This document shows, one piece after another, positions 1,556-10,841 of a stretch of 10,841 bases of DNA. This DNA is from Polyangiaceae bacterium. Its GTDB lineage: Bacteria > Myxococcota_A > Polyangia > HGW-17 > JALWFW01. Position 1 is the stretch's first letter. Every line of letters begins with the position of its first letter. The stretch covers positions 406-11,246 of the forward strand of contig JALWFW010000177.1 of NCBI GenBank assembly GCA_027013865.1, read 5' to 3'. The notes beneath the pieces are model-generated. The model searched no databases. It was not told the DNA's origin and saw only the letters and a program-made list of their open reading frames with translations. The position numbers and the translations under genes are program-made.

Positions 1556-2371
1556 TTATAGACTGAAAGGTGGAATGAAAAGGGTGTTGCCGTCTATGTG
1601 TACGTCTGCCCCAAGGACAACCGGGTGGTTTTCGGGTCCGTGTCCTGCAGGAAATCCGTACAGTACTGGAACTTCAGGCAGCAACGAGGTTACTAGGGCT
1701 GCTACATCCCGCTCGTCCAGTCCAGAAAACCGGCCGAGCACCACAGCCAGGGCTCTGTCTAAACCAGAACACCTTATCAGTTGCACCAAGGCGCGGTCTA
1801 TGCGGTACATGGGTTCGCCCACGTCCTCCAGGATGACGATGTAGCCGCTCAAATCTGGAGAGGCTTCAGTTCCACACATGGATGCCAGTACGGTCAGATT
1901 GCCTGCTGCTGCAGGACCTTGGACGCGGATTTCTTCCCCGTACAGTCGGTATGAGCGGGCAGGCATGTAGCCATCATCGAGCAGCATGGCAGTAAGGGCT
2001 CGGGAAGTACTGTCTAGACGTGGGAACTGGGTCACCACGGGTCCGTGGATGGCAGTGTGTCCGTTTGCGTGCCAGGCAAAGAGCAGGGCCGTGACATCAG
2101 AAAATCCCAGGAGCGCAGCCGATGGAGTTATGTGGTGGACTATGCGTGTAGCACCGTAACCACCGCGTGCTGCCCACAGAAGATCTGCGTATTCGGCTGC
2201 CTGTTCGAGGAGGCGTATCCTCGTGGCATCATCGGCAGCCAGGTAACTACACGGGCCTGAGGGCGGATCGGATACCTCGTGAAACACGGGTTCGCCTCCC
2301 CACTGCCTTAGTCCCTCTGCCACTTTTTCAGGATCTGCTGCCCCTGACGGATATACGATCGCTATGCGCAT
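1556..2371 (-). CDS. ldcA: LD-carboxypeptidase (peptidase S66, LdcA/MccF family)
   Basis: N-terminal IAIVYPSGA and the nucleophile motif GFSDVT, then the Glu in VILEDVGE and the His in FPAGHGPEN, give a Ser-Glu-His triad at the usual positions over the right length (271 aa). No obvious SD. Lies 21 nt after the upstream gene. Confidence 0.85.
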   Translation of the reverse strand: MRIAIVYPSGAADPEKVAEGLRQWGGEPVFHEVSDPPSGPCSYLAADDATRIRLLEQAAEYADLLWAARGGYGATRIVHHITPSAALLGFSDVTALLFAWHANGHTAIHGPVVTQFPRLDSTSRALTAMLLDDGYMPARSYRLYGEEIRVQGPAAAGNLTVLASMCGTEASPDLSGYIVILEDVGEPMYRIDRALVQLIRCSGLDRALAVVLGRFSGLDERDVAALVTSLLPEVPVLYGFPAGHGPENHPVVLGADVHIDGNTLFIPPFSL

Positions 2372-2392: not shown

Positions 2393-3412
2393 TCATTCGG
2401 TTTCTGTGGATTTCTTCTTTTTGCGACTTTTGCGTTTTTTACGGCTTTTGCGTTTTTTCTTTTCTCCAGAGGTGTCTGCAGGTTTGTCGCCGGATCCATC
2501 AGATTTCTCAGAGGACTCTTCAGAGTTATGGACTGAAGCGTCTTTCTGATCTTCTTCTGGGTGAGACGAGGGCTGCCCAGCATCTATCATGGAGGCCTCT
2601 TCCTCTACCTGTTCTGATGAAGTGGAGCCTGCGTCCCCAGGCTGATCATCTGAGGTCTGTGTATCGGATGGTTCCTCTTCAGTAGTGTCCTGGGTCATCT
2701 CACTGTCGGTATCCTGTGACAGTGCGCTACCTGGCTTGGCTTCAGTCTGTTCGGCGGGTTCAGTCTGTTCGGCGGGTTCAGTCTGTTCGGCGGGTTCAGT
2801 CTGTTCGGCGGGTTCAGTCTGTTCGGCGGGTTCAGTCTGTTCGGCGGGTTCAGTCTGTTCGGTGGCTTCAGTCTGTTCGGCGGGTTCAGTCTGTTCGGCG
2901 GGTTCAGTCTGTTCGGCGGGTTCGCCGCCTATGTCGGGGCTGATATCGTTTTCATCGGAAACAGACTGTGCTGCCATCTCTTCAGGCTGATCAGAAGTCA
3001 CGTCGTCTCCGGAGAGTTCAGTGGCCTCTTCAGCAGCGGGTTCCGGTTCATCTTGCGTTGTGGTAGCCGGGGATATGTCACTTTCAGAGGTATCTTCCGT
3101 ATGTTCATCCTGTAAGGTCTGGACATCTGAGTCTCCTGCTTCCAGCCATCTTTCGAAGACGTCCAGATGGCTATCACTCATCTCGTCCAGTCTCAGGAAC
3201 ATACCTGGGGCCTGATCGCCGATAGCTTCCCTCGATGTGCCCACTATCACCATGCAGTCAATGGTCTCTTCTCCCCTGGTTATTGTCATGGAGAGGCTGG
3301 TTCCCACAGGCATGGGGTCTTTGACCTGTACCTCGAACCCATCTAGGGATATGGCTTCCAGAGGTAGGTCACTGTATAGCGTTATGTCATGGTAGGTAAT
3401 AGATGCTTTCAT
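2393..3412 (-). CDS. Chimeric protein: non-canonical PilZ-like N-terminal beta-barrel domain, a highly acidic disordered region with ~10x PAEQTE tandem repeats, and a polybasic C-terminal tail (KKKRKSRKKRKSRKKKK)
   Basis: ATG at 3410-3412 is preceded by GAGAGGTG (preferred over the in-frame GTG at 3421). The first ~95 aa, with AISLDG and a ...GMFLRLDEMSDSHLDVFERWL C-terminal end, resemble a PilZ domain. They lack the RxxxR and D/NxSxxG c-di-GMP motifs. The remainder is D/E/T/S/Q-rich low complexity ending in a K/R run. Confidence 0.75.
   Translation of the reverse strand: MKASITYHDITLYSDLPLEAISLDGFEVQVKDPMPVGTSLSMTITRGEETIDCMVIVGTSREAIGDQAPGMFLRLDEMSDSHLDVFERWLEAGDSDVQTLQDEHTEDTSESDISPATTTQDEPEPAAEEATELSGDDVTSDQPEEMAAQSVSDENDISPDIGGEPAEQTEPAEQTEPAEQTEATEQTEPAEQTEPAEQTEPAEQTEPAEQTEPAEQTEPAEQTEAKPGSALSQDTDSEMTQDTTEEEPSDTQTSDDQPGDAGSTSSEQVEEEASMIDAGQPSSHPEEDQKDASVHNSEESSEKSDGSGDKPADTSGEKKKRKSRKKRKSRKKKKSTETE
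2738..2924. repeat. Near-perfect 18-bp tandem repeat (unit GGGTTCAGTCTGTTCGGC), 10 full copies plus a partial one; in frame, encoding (PAEQTE)n on the minus strand
   Basis: Read directly. Units run 2738-2755, 2756-2773 and so on to 2900-2917, with a partial unit at 2918-2924. Only three units carry single-base variants (units 1 and 8 have GGC at their 5' end, unit 7 ends GGT). Confidence 0.95.
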
Positions 3413-3453
3413 GGTGTGCACCTCTCAAAAGGAGACAGTGGGTAAAGGATGCC

Positions 3454-4776
3454 TTAGACCGGCTGAGCCGAACCGCAGTAGGGACAGAACTTCATGCCTG
3501 GCATGATTTCCTTGCCACAGGTTACGCAGTGGGGAGCTGCCTGGGCATGTTGGGTAGCTCCACAGAAAGGACAGAATTTCGATCCTTCCGGAATCTCCTT
3601 ACCGCAGTTCACGCATTTGACTTTGGGAAGTTCTGATAGTGGATTGCCGCAGTTCGGGCAGAACTTGAGTCCTGGACCCACAGGATAACCACATTTCGGA
3701 CATGCAGAAGAGCCCGGCGCCTGCTGTGGTGGAGTTTGCGTTGCTCCTGGTGCTGCCATGGTTGCCGCTGCTCCGGCTGCTGCTCCGGCTGCCATCTGTG
3801 CCTGATGAGGCTGTTGGGGCATGGCCCCTGCGGCTCCCTGGGGTGGCGGTGGCGGGGGGTATCCTCCAACACCTGCTCCCTGTGGCGGATATCCCTGCTG
3901 TCCGTACATTGCCTGCATTCCGGGATTCATGGACTGCGCCACCATTCCTGGCATCATGAATCCCATGCCAAGCCCCATGCCCATGCCCATGCCTGCACCT
4001 GCGGTTCCGTCTCCACCCGAGTTCTTGGCCAGATCTCGCATTGCATAGGCCATCTGGTACTGCTGGAATGCTCCCATGGAGTTTTCGAACAGCCCCATTC
4101 CACTGCGCTCGTCGATTTTCTTCTGTACTTCCGGCGGCGGGGTAATTGCTCCTATACGCAGATCTTCCAATTCGAGGCCGTTTTTGGCGAAGTCATCGGC
4201 AAGACGGGCCTTGGTGGCAGTGGCTATCTCATCGAAGAGGCCGGCCAGCTCCATGATACTCTTCATGATCTCGCCAATTACGTCGATGAGACGCTGCACC
4301 ACGGCATCCCTTGCCCAATTTGCCATGTCACTGGCCGTGTAGATGCGGCTGCTCTTGAGACGTTTGTTCACGAACAGAACCGGATCCACTATGCGGTATG
4401 TCAGGGAACCGAAAGAGCGCAACCTTACGACTCCCATCATGGAATCCCGCATGGGGATGGGTTCCTTGGTACCCCACTTCTGGTCGTCGATGAGTCCCAC
4501 GTCAACGAAGACCACTTCGGCCTTGAAAGGAGTTCTACCGTCGAAGGCCGCGCCGATGACCTTGCCGAGCAAGGGTAGGTTGCCTGTGGACAGGGTATAG
4601 CGACCTGGACCGAAGGTGTCCAGTGCCTGACCGCCCCTGTAGAAGATTGCCACCTGTCCTTCCCTGACGATGAGCTGGGAACCCCACTTTATGTCAGCCT
4701 CGCCGTCCTGGGGTATGCGGACGGCCATGACCTCTCGCGAATCATCTAGATATTCTATGAGATCGAGTAATGGCAT
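3454..4776 (-). CDS. SPFH/Band-7 family (Band_7_1-like) protein with a Gly/Met/Pro-rich linker and three C-terminal zinc ribbons
   Basis: RBS AAAGGAG 7 nt upstream of the ATG. The N-terminal ~250 aa (LIVREGQVAIFYRGGQALDTFGPGRY...) is typical of Band_7_1 SPFH proteins. It is followed by GMGMGMGLGMGFMMPGM / PPPPPP low complexity and then 3x [CxxCG-x8-10-KFCPxCG]. The (CATGCC)n DNA at 3963-3992 encodes the GM run. Confidence 0.85.
   Translation of the reverse strand: MPLLDLIEYLDDSREVMAVRIPQDGEADIKWGSQLIVREGQVAIFYRGGQALDTFGPGRYTLSTGNLPLLGKVIGAAFDGRTPFKAEVVFVDVGLIDDQKWGTKEPIPMRDSMMGVVRLRSFGSLTYRIVDPVLFVNKRLKSSRIYTASDMANWARDAVVQRLIDVIGEIMKSIMELAGLFDEIATATKARLADDFAKNGLELEDLRIGAITPPPEVQKKIDERSGMGLFENSMGAFQQYQMAYAMRDLAKNSGGDGTAGAGMGMGMGLGMGFMMPGMVAQSMNPGMQAMYGQQGYPPQGAGVGGYPPPPPPQGAAGAMPQQPHQAQMAAGAAAGAAATMAAPGATQTPPQQAPGSSACPKCGYPVGPGLKFCPNCGNPLSELPKVKCVNCGKEIPEGSKFCPFCGATQHAQAAPHCVTCGKEIMPGMKFCPYCGSAQPV
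3963..3992. repeat. Short hexamer repeat (CATGCC)n inside the SPFH gene, encoding the GMGMGMG linker
   Basis: Three perfect tandem CATGCC units at 3975-3992 plus a degenerate copy at 3963-3968. Confidence 0.7.
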
Positions 4777-4779
4777 GGA

Positions 4780-5262
4780 TTACTCCTTTCCTTCGCCGGA
4801 GCTCAGAATGTGTTCCCTGTCGTTCAGTGCCTGATCTATTTCTCTCAGAACGGAGGAGAAATTGATGAAGGCCATTTTCGGATCGCCACTAGCCATGGCG
4901 CTTTCGATGGCATCCATGGCATCGAAGGCCTTCTGGCGCAGTGTTTCGAGTTGCTGATCGTATTCTTCCACCTTGCGCAGTGCGTCTATTTTGGATGTGA
5001 AGAGACCGGGTGCGAAACCCATGTTGGACCAGTTGAGGCGGTCCCTAACTTTCCTGAGAAGCATGGTTGCCTGTTCTGCGTCATTGAGAAGCTGCATCTT
5101 GGTGAGATCACGTGAAATCATGACCTTTACCTGCTCCATGCGTGAATGAAGTTCGCCTAGTTTGGTACTCATGTATTCACGCAGAGCCCGATCCGTATTG
5201 CGACTCTCCTCACGTTGTCTGTAACCTTTGTAACCGGGAATTATATAATCCAAGATAGCCAT
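4780..5262 (-). CDS. Hypothetical cytoplasmic protein (~160 aa), helical/coiled-coil character, no transmembrane segment
   Basis: The ORF stop lies 3 nt before the SPFH start. GAGGAG sits 6 nt upstream of the ATG at 5262; the ATG at 5268 has no spacing to the SD and is rejected. Charged heptad-like segments (LRKVEEYDQQLETLRQKAFDAMDAIE). No family recognised. Confidence 0.65.
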   Translation of the reverse strand: MAILDYIIPGYKGYRQREESRNTDRALREYMSTKLGELHSRMEQVKVMISRDLTKMQLLNDAEQATMLLRKVRDRLNWSNMGFAPGLFTSKIDALRKVEEYDQQLETLRQKAFDAMDAIESAMASGDPKMAFINFSSVLREIDQALNDREHILSSGEGKE

Positions 5263-5277
5263 GCTCATCTCCTCTTA

Positions 5278-5622
5278 TCAGTCGTCTTCCGATTCTTCCT
5301 TTTTACCGGCTGATGCCCTGCGGTAGCCGGAGTATACGAGTCCTGCGATCACTAGGAGCAGCAATGGCCACGTACGGCCTAGACCTGCCAGCCCTGATGA
5401 GGACAAGAACCAGAAGAAGAATAGCACGGACCAAAAAGCCCAGAATTCTTTGGTGAAGGTCACCAAGGCCAGGGATCCGAACAGCGCAGTACCCACGAGG
5501 GGCCACAGTCTACTGACGGAACTGATGCCGAAAGTGACAGGAAGGGCAAAGATCAGTCCTGCTGTGATGAGGGTGGTCAGTACAGGAATGAGTACTTTGT
5601 TTTTGGAAGATTTGTCACCCAT
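5278..5622 (-). CDS. Small integral membrane protein (114 aa, ~4 predicted TM helices, acidic C-terminal tail)
   Basis: RBS CGAGGT 8 nt upstream. Starts 11 nt after the OmpA-family stop. Four hydrophobic 18-22 aa segments (VLIPVLTTLITAGLIFALPVTF, LWPLVGTALFGSLALVTF, FWAFWSVLFFFWFL..., WPLLLLVIAGLVYSGY). Confidence 0.7.
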   Translation of the reverse strand: MGDKSSKNKVLIPVLTTLITAGLIFALPVTFGISSVSRLWPLVGTALFGSLALVTFTKEFWAFWSVLFFFWFLSSSGLAGLGRTWPLLLLVIAGLVYSGYRRASAGKKEESEDD

Positions 5623-5633
5623 GGTGGACCTCG

Positions 5634-7886
5634 TTATTTGGCAAGTTTGAGTATGTGGAATTCAACCCGTCTGTTTTTGGCGCGGGCACGCTCCGAGATG
5701 TTGGGATAAATGGGTCTGGAACGACCGTATCCCTTGGTCCTGAGACGTGATGACTCGACACCCTTGGATATGAGGTAGGCACGCACTGCATCCGCACGCT
5801 TCTGGGACAGACGTCTGTTGTACTCATCGCTGCCCTTGTTGTCGGTGTGACCGTCTATGCGCACCAGTTTGATCTCTGGATGCTCTATGAGGAATGCCGC
5901 GATCTCGTCGAGCAGGAGTTTAGACCTTTCGGTCAGTCGTGCCGTATTGCGTTTGAAGTAGATCTTGCGTCTGAGAAGAATACGCGTTTTGCGGCGGTTG
6001 AGTTTGATGTGAGACTTGCGCGGCTTGCGCTTGAGGGATACCGTGACCTTTGGAGCCGGACAGGATTTGATGTCTAATTCCTTTGATACTGTAAGATATT
6101 TCCGTGATTTGATGACCACACGGTAGGTACCTGTGGGAACGGTGACGTTCTTACCGCTGGCAGGAATGGTCTCTTCCATGGAGATGTCTTTGCCTGCACT
6201 GTCCTTGCCTCTGATTGTGATAGAGGCTTTGATCTTCCGGTTTTTCTTGGCATCACGGATTTCGAAGGCCACGTCGCAGCCCTGGGCAGCCTTGTGTTTG
6301 AGTACAAGTGATACAGAGGCCTTTTTGCCGGGTTCGACCCTGACTTCCGTAGTGGCCTGCTCGAATCCCTTCTTGTATGCGATCACCTTGTATGAACCGG
6401 CCTTCAGGCTGCATGTCGAGAAACTGCCGCTCTCGTCGGCCAGTACGTCACTCATGCCAACTCCCGGAAGTGAGACTGCAGCACCAGGAACCGGATTACC
6501 CTTATCGTCCTTGATGAGACCAACGATGGCCCCAGTGACCGGGGCAGCCGCCTTTGCAGGCTCCTTGACCACTTTGATGATCTCTTTGGGTTTGCACACA
6601 GGGCAATTGCATGCAGGACACTGGGCGGAAGACGAGGTTTGAGAAGAAGGCACGAAAGTGATGGAGGCCAGGACATTGTATGGAGGAAGTGATGGAGCGA
6701 CCTTGTACCCTGGCTGCGAAATATTGATGTCTGCTCCTAGTCCTATGCTCACTTCCGGCGTGACCATGGCATTCAGGCCCAGGGTGAGTACCTGGCTTGT
6801 ATTGCCGTTTTTGGCAGCTTCGGTATCTACTGACAGATACTGCTCGATGTTACTGAGATTGGAATCGTCATCCACGAAGTAAATGAGGGAATACTCCATG
6901 AATGGGGTGAGATATACGGGACTTCCGGCCACCATGAACCTGTGGGTGTAGTCTGCGGCCAGCCGTAGCAGCGCTCTCGAAGGCATGACGCCCATGGCGT
7001 AACGGTGGACTATATATGTATAGAAGAGTTCTGGAAGGACGTCGGACTCTGCGTTGGCCCAGTCAGGAGAATCAAGCAGAGAATAGGAATTGTCCTGGAT
7101 ATAACCGGCATTGAGATGAAGTCCCACAGGGATACCCGCAGACTGTTTCAGACTGTAGGAGGCCAGGAGCATGGCAGCTATGGACGTCGCTCCAATGTCG
7201 GGAGCTATGTCGCCGACACCTGAATAAAGTCTGACGAAGCCCTCGAAACCTATATCAAGGCCAGGTGCCGCGTCTATGGGCATCGCCCACTTGCCGCCAA
7301 GCATGAAATCACCCATGGAACGTTGAACCTCTGGCTCGTAGGTGTCTGCTTCCCGGGTACGCTCATTGCGGTTGCTGGATGACAGGAGTGCCAGTTGCAG
7401 TTCGATGGAAGGGTATACCCGAAATGCCATGTGAAGGCCACCTGCCAGTCTGGTATTGGTCTCGTCATGGCCTGCAATGAGGAAATCCGACTGACGGAAC
7501 CATTCGAGGTGTAGTCCCATGGCGACACGATGGTTCAGGTCGGTAAGTACCGTGTGCATCAGTCCTGTTCCAAGGCCTGATGTCAGAGGAATCATGTGAG
7601 CGTGTTCGGTGTTGGGACGTGTACCGGATGCAGGTGGTAGGTCGGCAGTGGCCGGTTCTGCGGAGGGGGTTCTTTCGGGCTGAGTCTCGGGTTTGGGGCT
7701 GGTGACCTGAGGAGATGTCGTCACGGTAGCCTGAGGCTGAGTCTCGGGGGCTGTCCCGTTGCCCGGATCCGATGCCTGAGAAGTTGCCTTGTTCTGCTGT
7801 GCCTGTGTAGGCAGCGCCATGGCCAGTGCGATAACCATGGTTGCCATCGCCACTACAGAATTTCTGACCCGCGTCCTTACGTACAT
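5634..7886 (-). CDS. OmpA-family outer-membrane protein (750 aa): signal peptide, Pro/Thr-rich linker, ~330-aa beta-barrel-like region ending ...ASITF, CPACNCPVC cluster, two CarboxypepD_reg-like Ig-fold domains, C-terminal OmpA/MotB peptidoglycan-binding domain
   Basis: ATG at 7884-7886 with GGGAGG 6 nt upstream (preferred over the TTG at 7913). Signal-peptide-like YVRTRVRNSVVAMATMVIALAMALPTQAQQ. OmpA_C motifs are conserved (IDGHTDNKGSDEYNRRLSQKRADAVRAYL...NRRVEF). Two ~80-aa GxY...G.Y.V prealbumin-like repeats. Confidence 0.85.
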   Translation of the reverse strand: MYVRTRVRNSVVAMATMVIALAMALPTQAQQNKATSQASDPGNGTAPETQPQATVTTSPQVTSPKPETQPERTPSAEPATADLPPASGTRPNTEHAHMIPLTSGLGTGLMHTVLTDLNHRVAMGLHLEWFRQSDFLIAGHDETNTRLAGGLHMAFRVYPSIELQLALLSSSNRNERTREADTYEPEVQRSMGDFMLGGKWAMPIDAAPGLDIGFEGFVRLYSGVGDIAPDIGATSIAAMLLASYSLKQSAGIPVGLHLNAGYIQDNSYSLLDSPDWANAESDVLPELFYTYIVHRYAMGVMPSRALLRLAADYTHRFMVAGSPVYLTPFMEYSLIYFVDDDSNLSNIEQYLSVDTEAAKNGNTSQVLTLGLNAMVTPEVSIGLGADINISQPGYKVAPSLPPYNVLASITFVPSSQTSSSAQCPACNCPVCKPKEIIKVVKEPAKAAAPVTGAIVGLIKDDKGNPVPGAAVSLPGVGMSDVLADESGSFSTCSLKAGSYKVIAYKKGFEQATTEVRVEPGKKASVSLVLKHKAAQGCDVAFEIRDAKKNRKIKASITIRGKDSAGKDISMEETIPASGKNVTVPTGTYRVVIKSRKYLTVSKELDIKSCPAPKVTVSLKRKPRKSHIKLNRRKTRILLRRKIYFKRNTARLTERSKLLLDEIAAFLIEHPEIKLVRIDGHTDNKGSDEYNRRLSQKRADAVRAYLISKGVESSRLRTKGYGRSRPIYPNISERARAKNRRVEFHILKLAK

Positions 7887-7911
7887 ATCCGCCTCCCTTA
7901 CTGATGGTGAC

Positions 7912-7940
7912 AATATATAAGAAACCTCGTGCGGTTTCCA
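7912..7940 (-). promoter_or_regulatory. Candidate sigma-70-type promoter of the six-gene envelope operon: -35 TGGAAA (7935-7940), 17-nt spacer, -10 TATATT (7912-7917)
   Basis: Read on the minus strand as TGGAAAccgcacgaggtttcttaTATATT. Lies 26 nt upstream of the ATG (7884-7886) and immediately upstream of the GGGAGG RBS. A T6 run (7945-7950) follows the rluA stop. Confidence 0.3.
7921..7938. promoter_or_regulatory. Perfect palindrome GAAACC-N6-GGTTTC overlapping the -35 element and spacer of the operon promoter; candidate repressor operator
   Basis: 6-bp perfect inverted arms read directly. The position over -35 and the spacer is typical for a repressor site. The half-sites have a GAAC/GTTC flavour, but the spacing is N8 between GAAAC cores. 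Confidence 0.35.
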
Positions 7941-9583: not shown

Positions 9584-10060
9584 TCACAGACGCATGTCTC
9601 TTATTATTGCCGCCACGGTGCCCACGGCCTCGCCGGAGTCAAAGGAAAAACGCCTGCCGCTGCGGTACATGCGGTAGCCTGAATCGAGCTCTTTGGCCAC
9701 CACTATGAGATCTCCCGGTTTGAAAGGGCCTAGAGCTTCATCCATCTCCACTGCGAAAAATTCGCCTTCTCCTGTGTAGGATGCATCTACTGTTATGTAC
9801 CTTACGAGATGGCCGCTACGGGTATAAAGTGGGATGGACAGTGCCTGGGTCACAGGCACCAGGGAACGGGCGATTCCCTTTTCTCTCTTGAGATATCCTT
9901 TCTCCACCAGTTGGTTCACATGAAAGCTCACGGCGTTGGTGGACTTGAAGTTGAGCTCTTGGCAGATTTCCCTGTATGACGGCGCGTATCCGTGGCTTTT
10001 GAAGTATTTTTCGATGAATCGTAGTACTTCGTTCTGACGTGGAGTAAGCCCGTCTGCCAT
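9584..10060 (-). CDS. LexA-like transcriptional repressor (158 aa): LexA-type winged-helix DNA-binding domain plus a short, divergent C-terminal domain
   Basis: ATG at 10058-10060 with AAGGAGG 7 nt upstream. N-terminus MADGLTPRQNEVLRFIEKYFKSHGYAPSYREICQELNFKSTNAVSFHVNQLVEKGYLKREKGIARSL matches the LexA_DNA_bind pattern. The C-terminal 88 aa contain GDLIVVAK (LexA GDLLAVHK-like) but no GxSM Ser and no Ala-Gly cleavage site by eye. The 391-aa ORF in the track is an out-of-frame extension over the peptidase gene. Confidence 0.7.
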   Translation of the reverse strand: MADGLTPRQNEVLRFIEKYFKSHGYAPSYREICQELNFKSTNAVSFHVNQLVEKGYLKREKGIARSLVPVTQALSIPLYTRSGHLVRYITVDASYTGEGEFFAVEMDEALGPFKPGDLIVVAKELDSGYRMYRSGRRFSFDSGEAVGTVAAIIRDMRL

Positions 10061-10841
10061 TATTTGCCCTCCTTGCTCCACGCTTTGCCCCGCACCATGT
10101 CGGTTATGTCCCATGGTGACGGGCCACCGCCCAGATAGCGGTGGAACCAGTCGAGATGAGCTGCGTAATAAAGAGGCATGGATTTGACGAAGTTGGGCCA
10201 GTGACCGTCGTTGGGGAAGATGATGATTCTTGCGGGAATGCCACGTCTGCGCAGTGCCGTAAACAGCTGCATGCTCTGGGTGTATGACACGCGGTAGTCC
10301 TTCTCTCCGGTGATGATGAGGGTTGGGGTCTTCATGTTCTTGACATAGGTGGACGGAGACCACTTCCTGTAGCCTTCGGGGTTGTCCCATGGCGTGCCGC
10401 CCACGTCCCACTCGGGGAACCACAGCTCCTCGGTTACGCCGTACTTGGATGGCAGGTCGAACACGCCCATCATGGAGGCGATGGCCTTGAACCTGTCGGT
10501 GTGGCCCAAAAGCCAGTTCATCATGTAGCCTCCGTATGACCAGCCCATGGCTCCCATGCGGTTGGGATCCACGTAGGGCAGAGAGGCCAGATAGTCGGTG
10601 ACCTTCATCACGTCCTCGTAGACCTTGCCTCCCCAGTCTTTGGAGATGGCGGCTGTGTACTGCTGTCCGTATCCAGTGGAACCGTGGGGATTTGGGAACG
10701 CCACCACGTATCCTGCGCCCGGATATACCTGCCAGTCTCCTCTGAAGGAATCGGACCACTGTCCCTGGGGACCTCCGTGAACGTTGAGGATGAGCGGATA
10801 TTTCCTGCCAGGCGTAAATCCGTGGGGCTTTACTATGAATA
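10060..10841 (-). CDS. S9-family serine peptidase (prolyl oligopeptidase / acylaminoacyl-peptidase type), C-terminal catalytic domain; the 5' end lies beyond the window
   Basis: The reading frame is open to the window edge (…KPHGFTPGRKYPLILNVHGGPQGQWSDSF…). Nucleophile elbow GWSYGGY, Asp in ITGEKDYRV and His in PNDGHWP form the catalytic triad. The TAA stop at 10060-10062 overlaps the LexA-like ATG (TAATG). Confidence 0.9.
   Translation of the reverse strand, partial: FIVKPHGFTPGRKYPLILNVHGGPQGQWSDSFRGDWQVYPGAGYVVAFPNPHGSTGYGQQYTAAISKDWGGKVYEDVMKVTDYLASLPYVDPNRMGAMGWSYGGYMMNWLLGHTDRFKAIASMMGVFDLPSKYGVTEELWFPEWDVGGTPWDNPEGYRKWSPSTYVKNMKTPTLIITGEKDYRVSYTQSMQLFTALRRRGIPARIIIFPNDGHWPNFVKSMPLYYAAHLDWFHRYLGGGPSPWDITDMVRGKAWSKEGK

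Follow-up and report, generated by a model that had tools for sequence, protein, structure and literature searches.

The stretch of DNA examined here, 10,841 nucleotides of contig JALWFW010000177.1 from a Polyangiaceae bacterium and referred to below as the window, was found to carry on its minus strand a gene for a 339-residue protein built from a PilZ-related N-terminal domain, a polyanionic linker and a polybasic C-terminal tail. With regard to its identity and architecture, we are highly confident that this is a real, conserved gene and that its product is a Myxococcota protein restricted to a single clade.

Conservation of the three-part architecture

Related genome loci were retrieved with the SPFH protein encoded immediately upstream of the gene and were then searched by tblastn and with a family hidden Markov model (HMM); a library of 1.8 billion proteins was also searched exhaustively with phmmer. 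A relative of the N-terminal domain was found immediately 3' of the SPFH gene in nine loci (L001-L005, L007 and L009-L011), which belong to bins assigned to Myxococcota, Polyangia, Kofleriaceae, 'Haliangium' or unclassified 'Deltaproteobacteria', and the exhaustive search added two metagenome clusters, P0005 and P0006. Besides the window protein, 10 further full-length orthologues and one partial orthologue were found. All 11 full-length members were found to share a common plan, comprising a barrel of about 100 residues, an acidic linker and a C-terminal polybasic tail. The first-pass annotation, made by a model from the sequence of the window, had described the protein as chimeric. This term is misleading, as the plan is ancestral to a small family, is conserved in it and did not arise by recent fusion.

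Across the 11 members, the linker comprises 97-223 residues, of which 22-49% are D/E and 2-7% are K/R, and has a net charge of -20 to -80. The C-terminal K/R run, with a net charge of +7 to +23, is present in every one of them, and the length of the tail varies from 12 to 33 residues; examples among the orthologues are KRKKARRRKKST, KKKVRRRTKKS, (KKKKS)x6, KKKKRRKKKSSKKEE and KKRRRRTKKK. In three close pairs, identity was 96, 78 and 69% in the barrel, 57, 47 and 28% in the linker, with many indels, and 100, 81 and 62% over the last 16 residues. The composition and charge of the linker are kept across the orthologues while its sequence is not conserved, and separate lineages each carry linker repeats of their own. 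Given that these repeats differ from lineage to lineage, the linker evolves by slippage or expansion and is selected for composition and charge, not for sequence. The tail of L004 is a six-fold KKKKS repeat, which indicates that the tail, too, evolves by repeat expansion. Linker repeats and tail length, whose variation among homologues the first-pass annotation had proposed to look for, thus differ between members of the family. An extra basic patch was observed right after the barrel in L001 (KPTKRKRKSKK), L005 (KKPKKKPAAK) and L010 (KKSRKKSK), and shortly before the tail in L005 (KKRQKKKK) and L011 (KPTKKRKKK).

A short linear motif common to the linkers of the whole family was looked for and none was found. 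A motif confined to a Haliangium/Kofleria-like subgroup, E-[RK]-T-[IV]-P-[IV]-[DQ], was observed in L007 (7355-8056), L009 (7348-8055), L010 (7307-8008) and P0006, in the variants ERTIPVD, ERTIPID, DKTIPIQ and ERTVPID; it is absent from the window protein and may be a linear binding motif. A degenerate DNA pattern for EPMPVATE gave, among the matches listed, chance matches only, and none passed the family HMM.

Reading frame and start site

The same comparison bears on translation of the gene. In all members (11/11), the basic tail follows in frame after 97-223 hypervariable codons, and because this holds in every lineage, it provides strong evidence that the entire open reading frame (ORF) is translated. 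The first-pass annotation had considered that the ORF might be untranslated and that relatives might carry frame-disrupting variants; barrel, linker and tail were found in one frame in 10 of 10 further full-length relatives, despite heavy indel turnover. A spurious or untranslated ORF arising from a low-complexity repeat region could be suspected from the lack of a Pfam match, from the absence of the exact protein from the gene-call collection searched and from the fact that the tandem repeat opens ORFs in other frames too. This possibility is effectively refuted by the comparative data. The barrel keeps 24-34% identity across eight of the nine family sequences and 69-96% in the close pairs, a Shine-Dalgarno-like motif is present and the gene is tightly packed between its neighbours.

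The ATG at 3412 is the likely start, preferred over the GTG at 3421 on account of its spacing from the GAGG motif. The GTG would lengthen the product by three residues only. A longer N-terminus is impossible, since an in-frame TGA lies two codons 5' of this GTG and abuts the GAG codon before it.

In the gene-call collection searched, no record was found for the exact protein, nor for the exact sequence of the neighbouring SPFH protein. Word-indexed homologue searches with the N-terminal domain and with two profiles returned either no match or the partial sequence P0007 alone. The only family member with a database name is a 'hypothetical protein', and a cluster look-up gave such names only. 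On the opposite strand, ORFs of 101 and 75 residues were observed at 2685-2990 (+) and 2716-2943 (+), with SVCSAG and VRRVQS repeats; these are by-products of the 18-bp array described below and not genes.

Relationship of the N-terminal domain to PilZ

A PilZ-type six-stranded barrel followed by a C-terminal helix is supported for the N-terminal 95 or so residues by remote homology and by a structural model, in line with the PilZ-like fold proposed in the first-pass annotation. The exhaustive phmmer search reached P0004 (220 residues; E 1e-5), a tandem PilZ protein which itself matches Pfam PilZ with E 6e-24, and hhalign aligned the family profile with P0004 with a probability of 92.8% (E 4e-7). 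TIGR02266, the NCBIfam model of a paralogous PilZ-type domain of Myxococcus, was matched by six of the nine members, all below its cut-off of 68.7 bits, the N-terminal domain of the window protein being the best (20.4 bits, E 4e-4). A phmmer search against the PDB gave no match, and a profile search of PDB sequences gave a weak match to MotI/YpfA (E 0.25).

The AlphaFold2 (AF2) model of the domain, made from a six-sequence alignment that included the two PilZ domains of P0004, has a mean confidence (pLDDT) of 87 and a predicted TM-score (pTM) of 0.74. It comprises six strands (residues 2-7, 10-19, 25-28, 39-46, 49-61 and 70-78) and then a helix at residues 80-97. When this model was compared with the PDB by Foldseek, about 40 of the top 41 matches were annotated as PilZ, with a TM-score of up to 0.76 (MotI). 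The structure prediction that had been proposed as a check in the first-pass annotation is therefore PilZ-like.

Some observations weigh against this assignment. The alignment was shallow and held two true PilZ domains, and the AF2 model may be biased for this reason; the model obtained from the single sequence was poor (pLDDT 51). The sequence evidence for the relationship is, however, independent of the AF2 model. The domain also falls under the Pfam and NCBIfam thresholds: for Pfam PilZ (PF07238, gathering threshold 22.5 bits), the window protein gave no match at E<=1 and a single one of nine orthologue domains matched, with E 0.19. As it fails the thresholds of both Pfam PilZ and TIGR02266, we have chosen to refer to the domain as PilZ-related rather than as a member of the family by curated cut-offs.

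The top phmmer matches to the N-terminal domain of the window protein were large DUF11-type repeat proteins, P0001-P0003 (E 6e-11). They were rejected as relatives, with an hhalign family-profile probability of 0.5%. Their score sums five identical repeats, each containing a 38%-identical stretch of 61 residues around V.V.DPMP, and was inflated because this stretch recurs five times.

Loss of the c-di-GMP motifs

The two motifs by which PilZ domains bind the nucleotide cyclic di-GMP (c-di-GMP), RxxxR and [D/N]xSxxG, had been reported as absent in the first-pass annotation, and this holds for the window protein and for all orthologues. The RxxxR motifs of P0004 (RKDAR and RVAPR) align upstream of the start of the family. 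The window protein begins MKASITY, its first strand starting at residue 2, and the N-terminal leaders of 6-8 residues in the orthologues contain no Arg; no member was found to have an RxxxR motif. The DLSxxG motifs of P0004 align with AISLDG of the window protein (residues 20-25), so that AISLDG does occupy the position of the second motif, as had been assumed. The hydrophobic, Ser and Gly positions are kept in A-I-S-L-D-G and the D/N is lost. The orthologues have NFTTDT, DFSLDK, ISSSNK, ELSNLS, SLDMEN, EVSMEN, DVGMEM and QISLEK at this place, and no position of [D/N]hSxxG is conserved family-wide. On the basis of this motif loss, the barrel is predicted to bind no c-di-GMP.

A conventional c-di-GMP receptor, in which the ligand would switch the conformation or localisation of the charged C-terminal region, would agree with the PilZ fold and remote homology of the domain, with the h, S and G that the window protein keeps in the second motif, and with the finding that some PilZ domains with an imperfect second motif still bind the ligand (bioRxiv 10.1101/814665). 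We consider it very unlikely. The RxxxR arm is missing in every member, there is no room for it where the barrel of the window protein begins at residue 2, and the second motif is unconserved across the orthologues.

Acidic linker, tandem repeat and basic tail

The N-terminal 95 residues have an ordinary, mildly acidic composition (net charge -12). They are followed by an acidic segment of about 220 residues, as described in the first-pass annotation, which has a net charge of -66, contains 70 D/E against 4 K/R and is rich in E, T, S, D, A, Q and P. Residues 101-323 contain no aromatic residue and 6% hydrophobic residues, and lie far into the disordered side of the charge-hydropathy boundary, with the N-terminal domain on the folded side; this boundary is a rule of composition and not a disorder predictor. 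The linker includes an 18-bp tandem array that had been read as ten copies of PAEQTE. The array does have ten units, but these encode nine PAEQTE and one ATEQTE.

The polybasic tail was likewise borne out. It has a net charge of +13 in a protein whose overall charge is -65, and 15 of the 25 K/R of the protein are found within the last 22 residues (hypergeometric P = 9e-15). The tail was said to be encoded by a twofold direct DNA repeat at 2426-2459. There are exactly two copies, which span 2427-2457 instead; the pair gave no match in 200 shuffles, and Tandem Repeats Finder (TRF) reports it with period 18 and 2.3 copies. The charge patterning that had been suggested for analysis proved to be pronounced: in addition to the clustering of K/R at the C-terminus, charge segregation in the non-barrel part of the window protein exceeded that of 500 of 500 shuffles, and in nine of the 11 family members it exceeded that of at least 497 of 500.

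These properties could also be read as those of a soluble polyanion, in which the linker would act as a sink for cations, polyamines or basic proteins, as a mimic of DNA or polyphosphate, as an entropic bristle or as a stress protectant, and the tail would fold back as an intramolecular switch. The conservation of linker charge and composition in place of sequence, the independent origin of acidic-unit repeat expansions in several lineages and the significant segregation of charge blocks in nine of 11 members are all consistent with such a role. It would, however, leave unexplained the conserved PilZ barrel combined with a strictly C-terminal basic tail, as well as the fixed position beside the SPFH gene, and the 2- to 4-fold variation of the linker (97-223 residues, -20 to -80) speaks against stoichiometric binding. 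We therefore regard it as rather improbable.

Genomic context

The gene is the fifth of six minus-strand genes in the window, which are separated by successive gaps of 11, 9, 3, 41 and 21 nt (Table 1). A promoter and terminator scan found sites no more numerous than in shuffles and was thus uninformative, so that co-transcription is inferred from the spacing.

Table 1. Coordinates of the gene, its parts and its neighbours in the window
Feature	Position	Strand	Evidence and remarks
OmpA-family peptidoglycan-binding envelope protein	5634..7913	-	First in cluster; Pfam OmpA E 3.6e-25, CarboxypepD_reg
114-residue hydrophobic, probably multi-pass membrane protein	5278..5622	-	Sequence, hydropathy
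162-residue helical protein, conserved	4780..5268	-	3-nt gap to SPFH gene; weak family matches
SPFH (Band_7_1) protein	3454..4776	-	Pfam Band_7_1 E 7.6e-49, DZR, Zn_Ribbon; 41-nt gap to the gene under study
GAGG Shine-Dalgarno-like motif	3421..3424	-	8 nt 5' of ATG 3412; read from sequence
Coding sequence of the gene under study	2393..3412	-	339 residues + stop; degenerate PilZ domain, polyanionic linker, polybasic tail
N-terminal PilZ-related domain, residues 1-95	3128..3412	-	Six beta-strands + C-terminal helix; AISLDG at residues 20-25
Polyanionic linker, predicted disordered, residues 96-317	2462..3127	-	Composition, charge-hydropathy; net -66
18-bp tandem repeat	2741..2923	-	TRF: 10.2 copies, 97% matches, score 352; encodes residues 165-224
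C-terminal polybasic tail KKKRKSRKKRKSRKKKKSTETE, residues 318-339	2396..2461	-	15 K/R, no hydrophobic residue
Two exact copies of CTTTTGCGTTTTT (13-mer)	2427..2457 (2427-2439, 2445-2457)	+	Encode the KKRKSR duplication
LD-carboxypeptidase (Peptidase_S66; LdcA)	1556..2371	-	Pfam, NCBIfam; 21-nt gap after the gene under study

The gene was found directly downstream of the SPFH gene in all nine loci that carry it, and it is followed by the LD-carboxypeptidase gene in 8/8 loci long enough to show it. Upstream, the OmpA-like gene is present in eight of these nine loci, and the gene for the 162-residue protein likewise in eight; locus L011 starts inside the SPFH gene. The 114-residue membrane protein was detected by BLAST in six of the nine (L001-L005 and L010). 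In a sister clade (L006, L008 and L012-L016), only the 162-residue protein and the SPFH protein are encoded, followed by an acyltransferase, and the gene under study is absent. A further 25, more distant, SPFH loci contain neither this gene nor any other gene of the cluster. The 162-residue protein and the SPFH protein thus form a core pair that is conserved in 15 loci, and the OmpA-like, small membrane, PilZ-like and LD-carboxypeptidase genes are limited to a subclade with an SPFH identity of at least 63%. From this pattern of synteny, we conclude that the SPFH core has been elaborated, in one clade, with genes of an envelope character, and that the protein is an accessory of this elaboration.

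With regard to the neighbours themselves, the SPFH protein comprises, in order, the Band_7_1 domain, a Gly/Met-rich hydrophobic stretch GMGMGMGLGMGFMMPGM, a P/Q/G/Y low-complexity region and three C-terminal zinc ribbons, and its QGYPPQ-type repeats vary in number among orthologues. The 162-residue protein gave a weak match to the Leptospira LIMLP_15305 family in the NCBIfam scan. A complementary basic partner was sought in the cluster by net charge, and none was found among the likely cytoplasmic products; a positive net charge was seen only for the OmpA-like envelope protein (+23) and the small membrane protein (+3). PADLOC gave no defence-system signal beyond generic MotB/OmpA-domain matches and weak ZorG matches in the neighbours.

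Proposed function

We tentatively favour the view, without rating it as probable, that the protein is an adaptor blind to c-di-GMP which its tail holds at an anionic surface, preferably the inner membrane, and whose barrel has its partner in the SPFH module. The PilZ-fold barrel, deprived of the RxxxR arm and of the [D/N]xSxxG motif, would serve as a docking domain for one of the constituents of the SPFH envelope module, the SPFH protein being the likeliest. Some 100-220 residues long, the linker would form an extended, self-repelling spacer that holds the two ends apart, or a charged brush; it could also act as an intramolecular counter-ion and mask the tail in cis. The polycationic tail would anchor the protein to a polyanionic surface, for which the anionic surface of the inner membrane is preferred. 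On this view, the protein would serve the SPFH module as a long-reach membrane tether or adaptor.

The inner membrane was chosen as the target of the tail, and the SPFH module as the partner, because the gene context is envelope-related. As the tail has no hydrophobic residues and hence could form no amphipathic helix, its binding would be purely electrostatic. A dependence on partners for reaching the membrane is known for soluble Band_7_1 SPFH proteins; one example is YdjI/SamI of Bacillus subtilis, through which envelope stress is coupled to the synthesis of the cell wall (PMC8581546; bioRxiv 10.64898/2026.02.06.704340). PilZ proteins that lack the motifs and work through protein contacts are also known, namely PA2960 and XAC1133 (bioRxiv 10.1101/814665) and PlpA (PMC8316039).

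Several points count against this proposal. A K/R/S tail without hydrophobic residues is suited to DNA, RNA and polyphosphate as readily as to lipid, and operon status is deduced from gene spacing. The SPFH gene is present without the gene under study in many loci, which means that the SPFH scaffold does not need the protein, and the cluster's own membrane protein could anchor the SPFH protein.

The main rival, which we consider unlikely, is that of a nucleoid or nucleic-acid adaptor, in which the tail would bind DNA or RNA, the acidic region would tune or auto-inhibit this binding and the barrel would recruit a partner. A tail of this kind, made of K/R/S and neither hydrophobic nor amphipathic, is typical of proteins that bind nucleic acids non-specifically, and several orthologues have a second basic patch. 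There is also a precedent in CarD, where a small N-terminal interaction domain and an acidic region precede a basic, DNA-binding C-terminus (PMC2919716), and the Myxococcus PilZ protein CdbS is tied to chromosome organisation (PMC10313047). However, no tail contains an AT-hook (RGRP) or H1-like A/P/K repeats, and a tail of 12-33 residues would have to compete with a DNA-repelling linker of net charge -20 to -80. Furthermore, the invariant context, comprising the SPFH protein, the OmpA-like protein, the membrane protein and the LD-carboxypeptidase, relates to the envelope and not to DNA.

Should the adaptor reading be correct, it would be a clear case of a PilZ barrel that, stripped of second-messenger binding, now heads a long electrostatic tether. 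Soluble Band_7_1 SPFH proteins, which are poorly understood in Gram-negative bacteria, would gain a candidate accessory factor, and the protein would offer a compact natural model for the conservation of charge patterning, rather than sequence, in bacterial disordered regions. A bolder version, which we regard as a long shot, would be a new class of bacterial charge-block tether, with a ligand-blind PilZ barrel on an SPFH scaffold, a polycationic tip on the membrane or nucleoid and, between them, a repeat-expandable polyanionic brush that sets a distance or an electrostatic exclusion zone. SPFH assemblies would in that case gain a previously unrecognised electrostatic organiser, possibly switchable through Ser/Thr phosphorylation of the K/R/S tail. 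The organisms of the family are known from metagenome bins only, which limits immediate testing.

Comparison with known systems

The closest parallels for the barrel are PilZ PA2960 of P. aeruginosa, PilZ XAC1133/XC1028 of Xanthomonas and PlpA of M. xanthus, which are likewise small PilZ-related barrels without RxxxR and [D/N]xSxxG and which act, or are thought to act, by protein-protein contacts and not through c-di-GMP (bioRxiv 10.1101/814665; PMC8316039). Unlike the window protein, they are single domains with no charged extension, and no link to type IV pilus genes was seen here, in contrast to such stand-alone PilZ adaptors. The remodelled barrel of the xPilZ type (PA2960/XAC1133), with an inverted first strand, a helix in place of the second and five strands, was not encountered in the window protein. 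The closest relationship in sequence is with PilZ domains of TIGR02266/PF07238, with which the window protein shares the xPxPxGT core motif and the C-terminal helix, although its scores are far under the cut-offs and it has lost the two motifs for nucleotide binding.

The order of modules matches that of M. xanthus CarD, which combines a CarD_TRCF domain, an acidic region and HMGA-type AT-hooks, and that of eukaryotic HMGA (PMC2919716). This is an analogy only. The N-terminal domain of CarD is unrelated, its context is transcription whereas that of the window protein is the envelope, and the acidic part of the window protein is several-fold longer and dominates the protein, its tail being a plain K/R/S run. 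No Pfam match to a CarD_CdnL_TRCF domain was found, and the fold search returned PilZ domains and not Tudor-like CarD domains. Neither AT-hooks nor H1-like repeats were found in the family, all 11 tails being of K/R/S/T composition without GRP.

The PspA-YdjGHI (SamGHI) system of B. subtilis shares the Band_7_1 SPFH protein and membrane recruitment by operon partners (PMC8581546). YdjG and YdjH are, however, integral membrane proteins, with no PilZ domain and no charge-block tail, and Pfam and NCBIfam scans detected no PspA homologue in the cluster of the window. The putative partnership of the window protein with the SPFH protein is suggested by synteny only.

The tail itself resembles the C-terminus of K-Ras and the effector domain of MARCKS, which are short, unstructured K/R clusters with Ser. 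Such eukaryotic polybasic clusters bind anionic lipid head-groups electrostatically, and phosphorylation can switch this binding (PMC10771482). The anchors of K-Ras and MARCKS cooperate with lipid modification or aromatic residues, neither of which is present here. In the literature searched, no bacterial precedent was found for a eukaryotic-style polybasic anchor or switch.

Full-text searches of a limited collection of literature gave no description of a PilZ protein of this architecture or of a link between PilZ and SPFH proteins, and nothing relevant on PilZ proteins with disordered regions, or on polybasic tails, in Myxococcus. Taken singly, degenerate PilZ adaptors, acidic disordered regions and polybasic anchors are all familiar. 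What is new is their conserved combination in one protein, which in a small clade of Myxococcota is invariably associated with an SPFH cluster. The evidence points to no new principle and opens no long-standing question.

Other genes of the window

In the loci that carry the gene under study, a gene for a CHAT-like protein is usually found farther downstream. The window is an exception, as an unrelated plus-strand gene (685-1533) follows the LD-carboxypeptidase gene in its place. Its product of 282 residues, which gave no family match and is not conserved in the related loci, is rich in Cys and Asp in an N-terminal segment CETADSQWGYDESCDSGCDCGCEE, has F as its last residue and is possibly an outer-membrane beta-barrel. 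At the other end of the window, a GTG ORF of 391 residues at 9584-10759 (-) looks composite; judged by eye, its C-terminal part MADGLTPRQNEVLRFIEKYFKSHGY resembles a LexA-type winged helix. An overlapping ORF of 215 residues at 10060-10707 (-) has, again by eye, the appearance of the C-terminal catalytic part of an S9 prolyl-oligopeptidase-type hydrolase.

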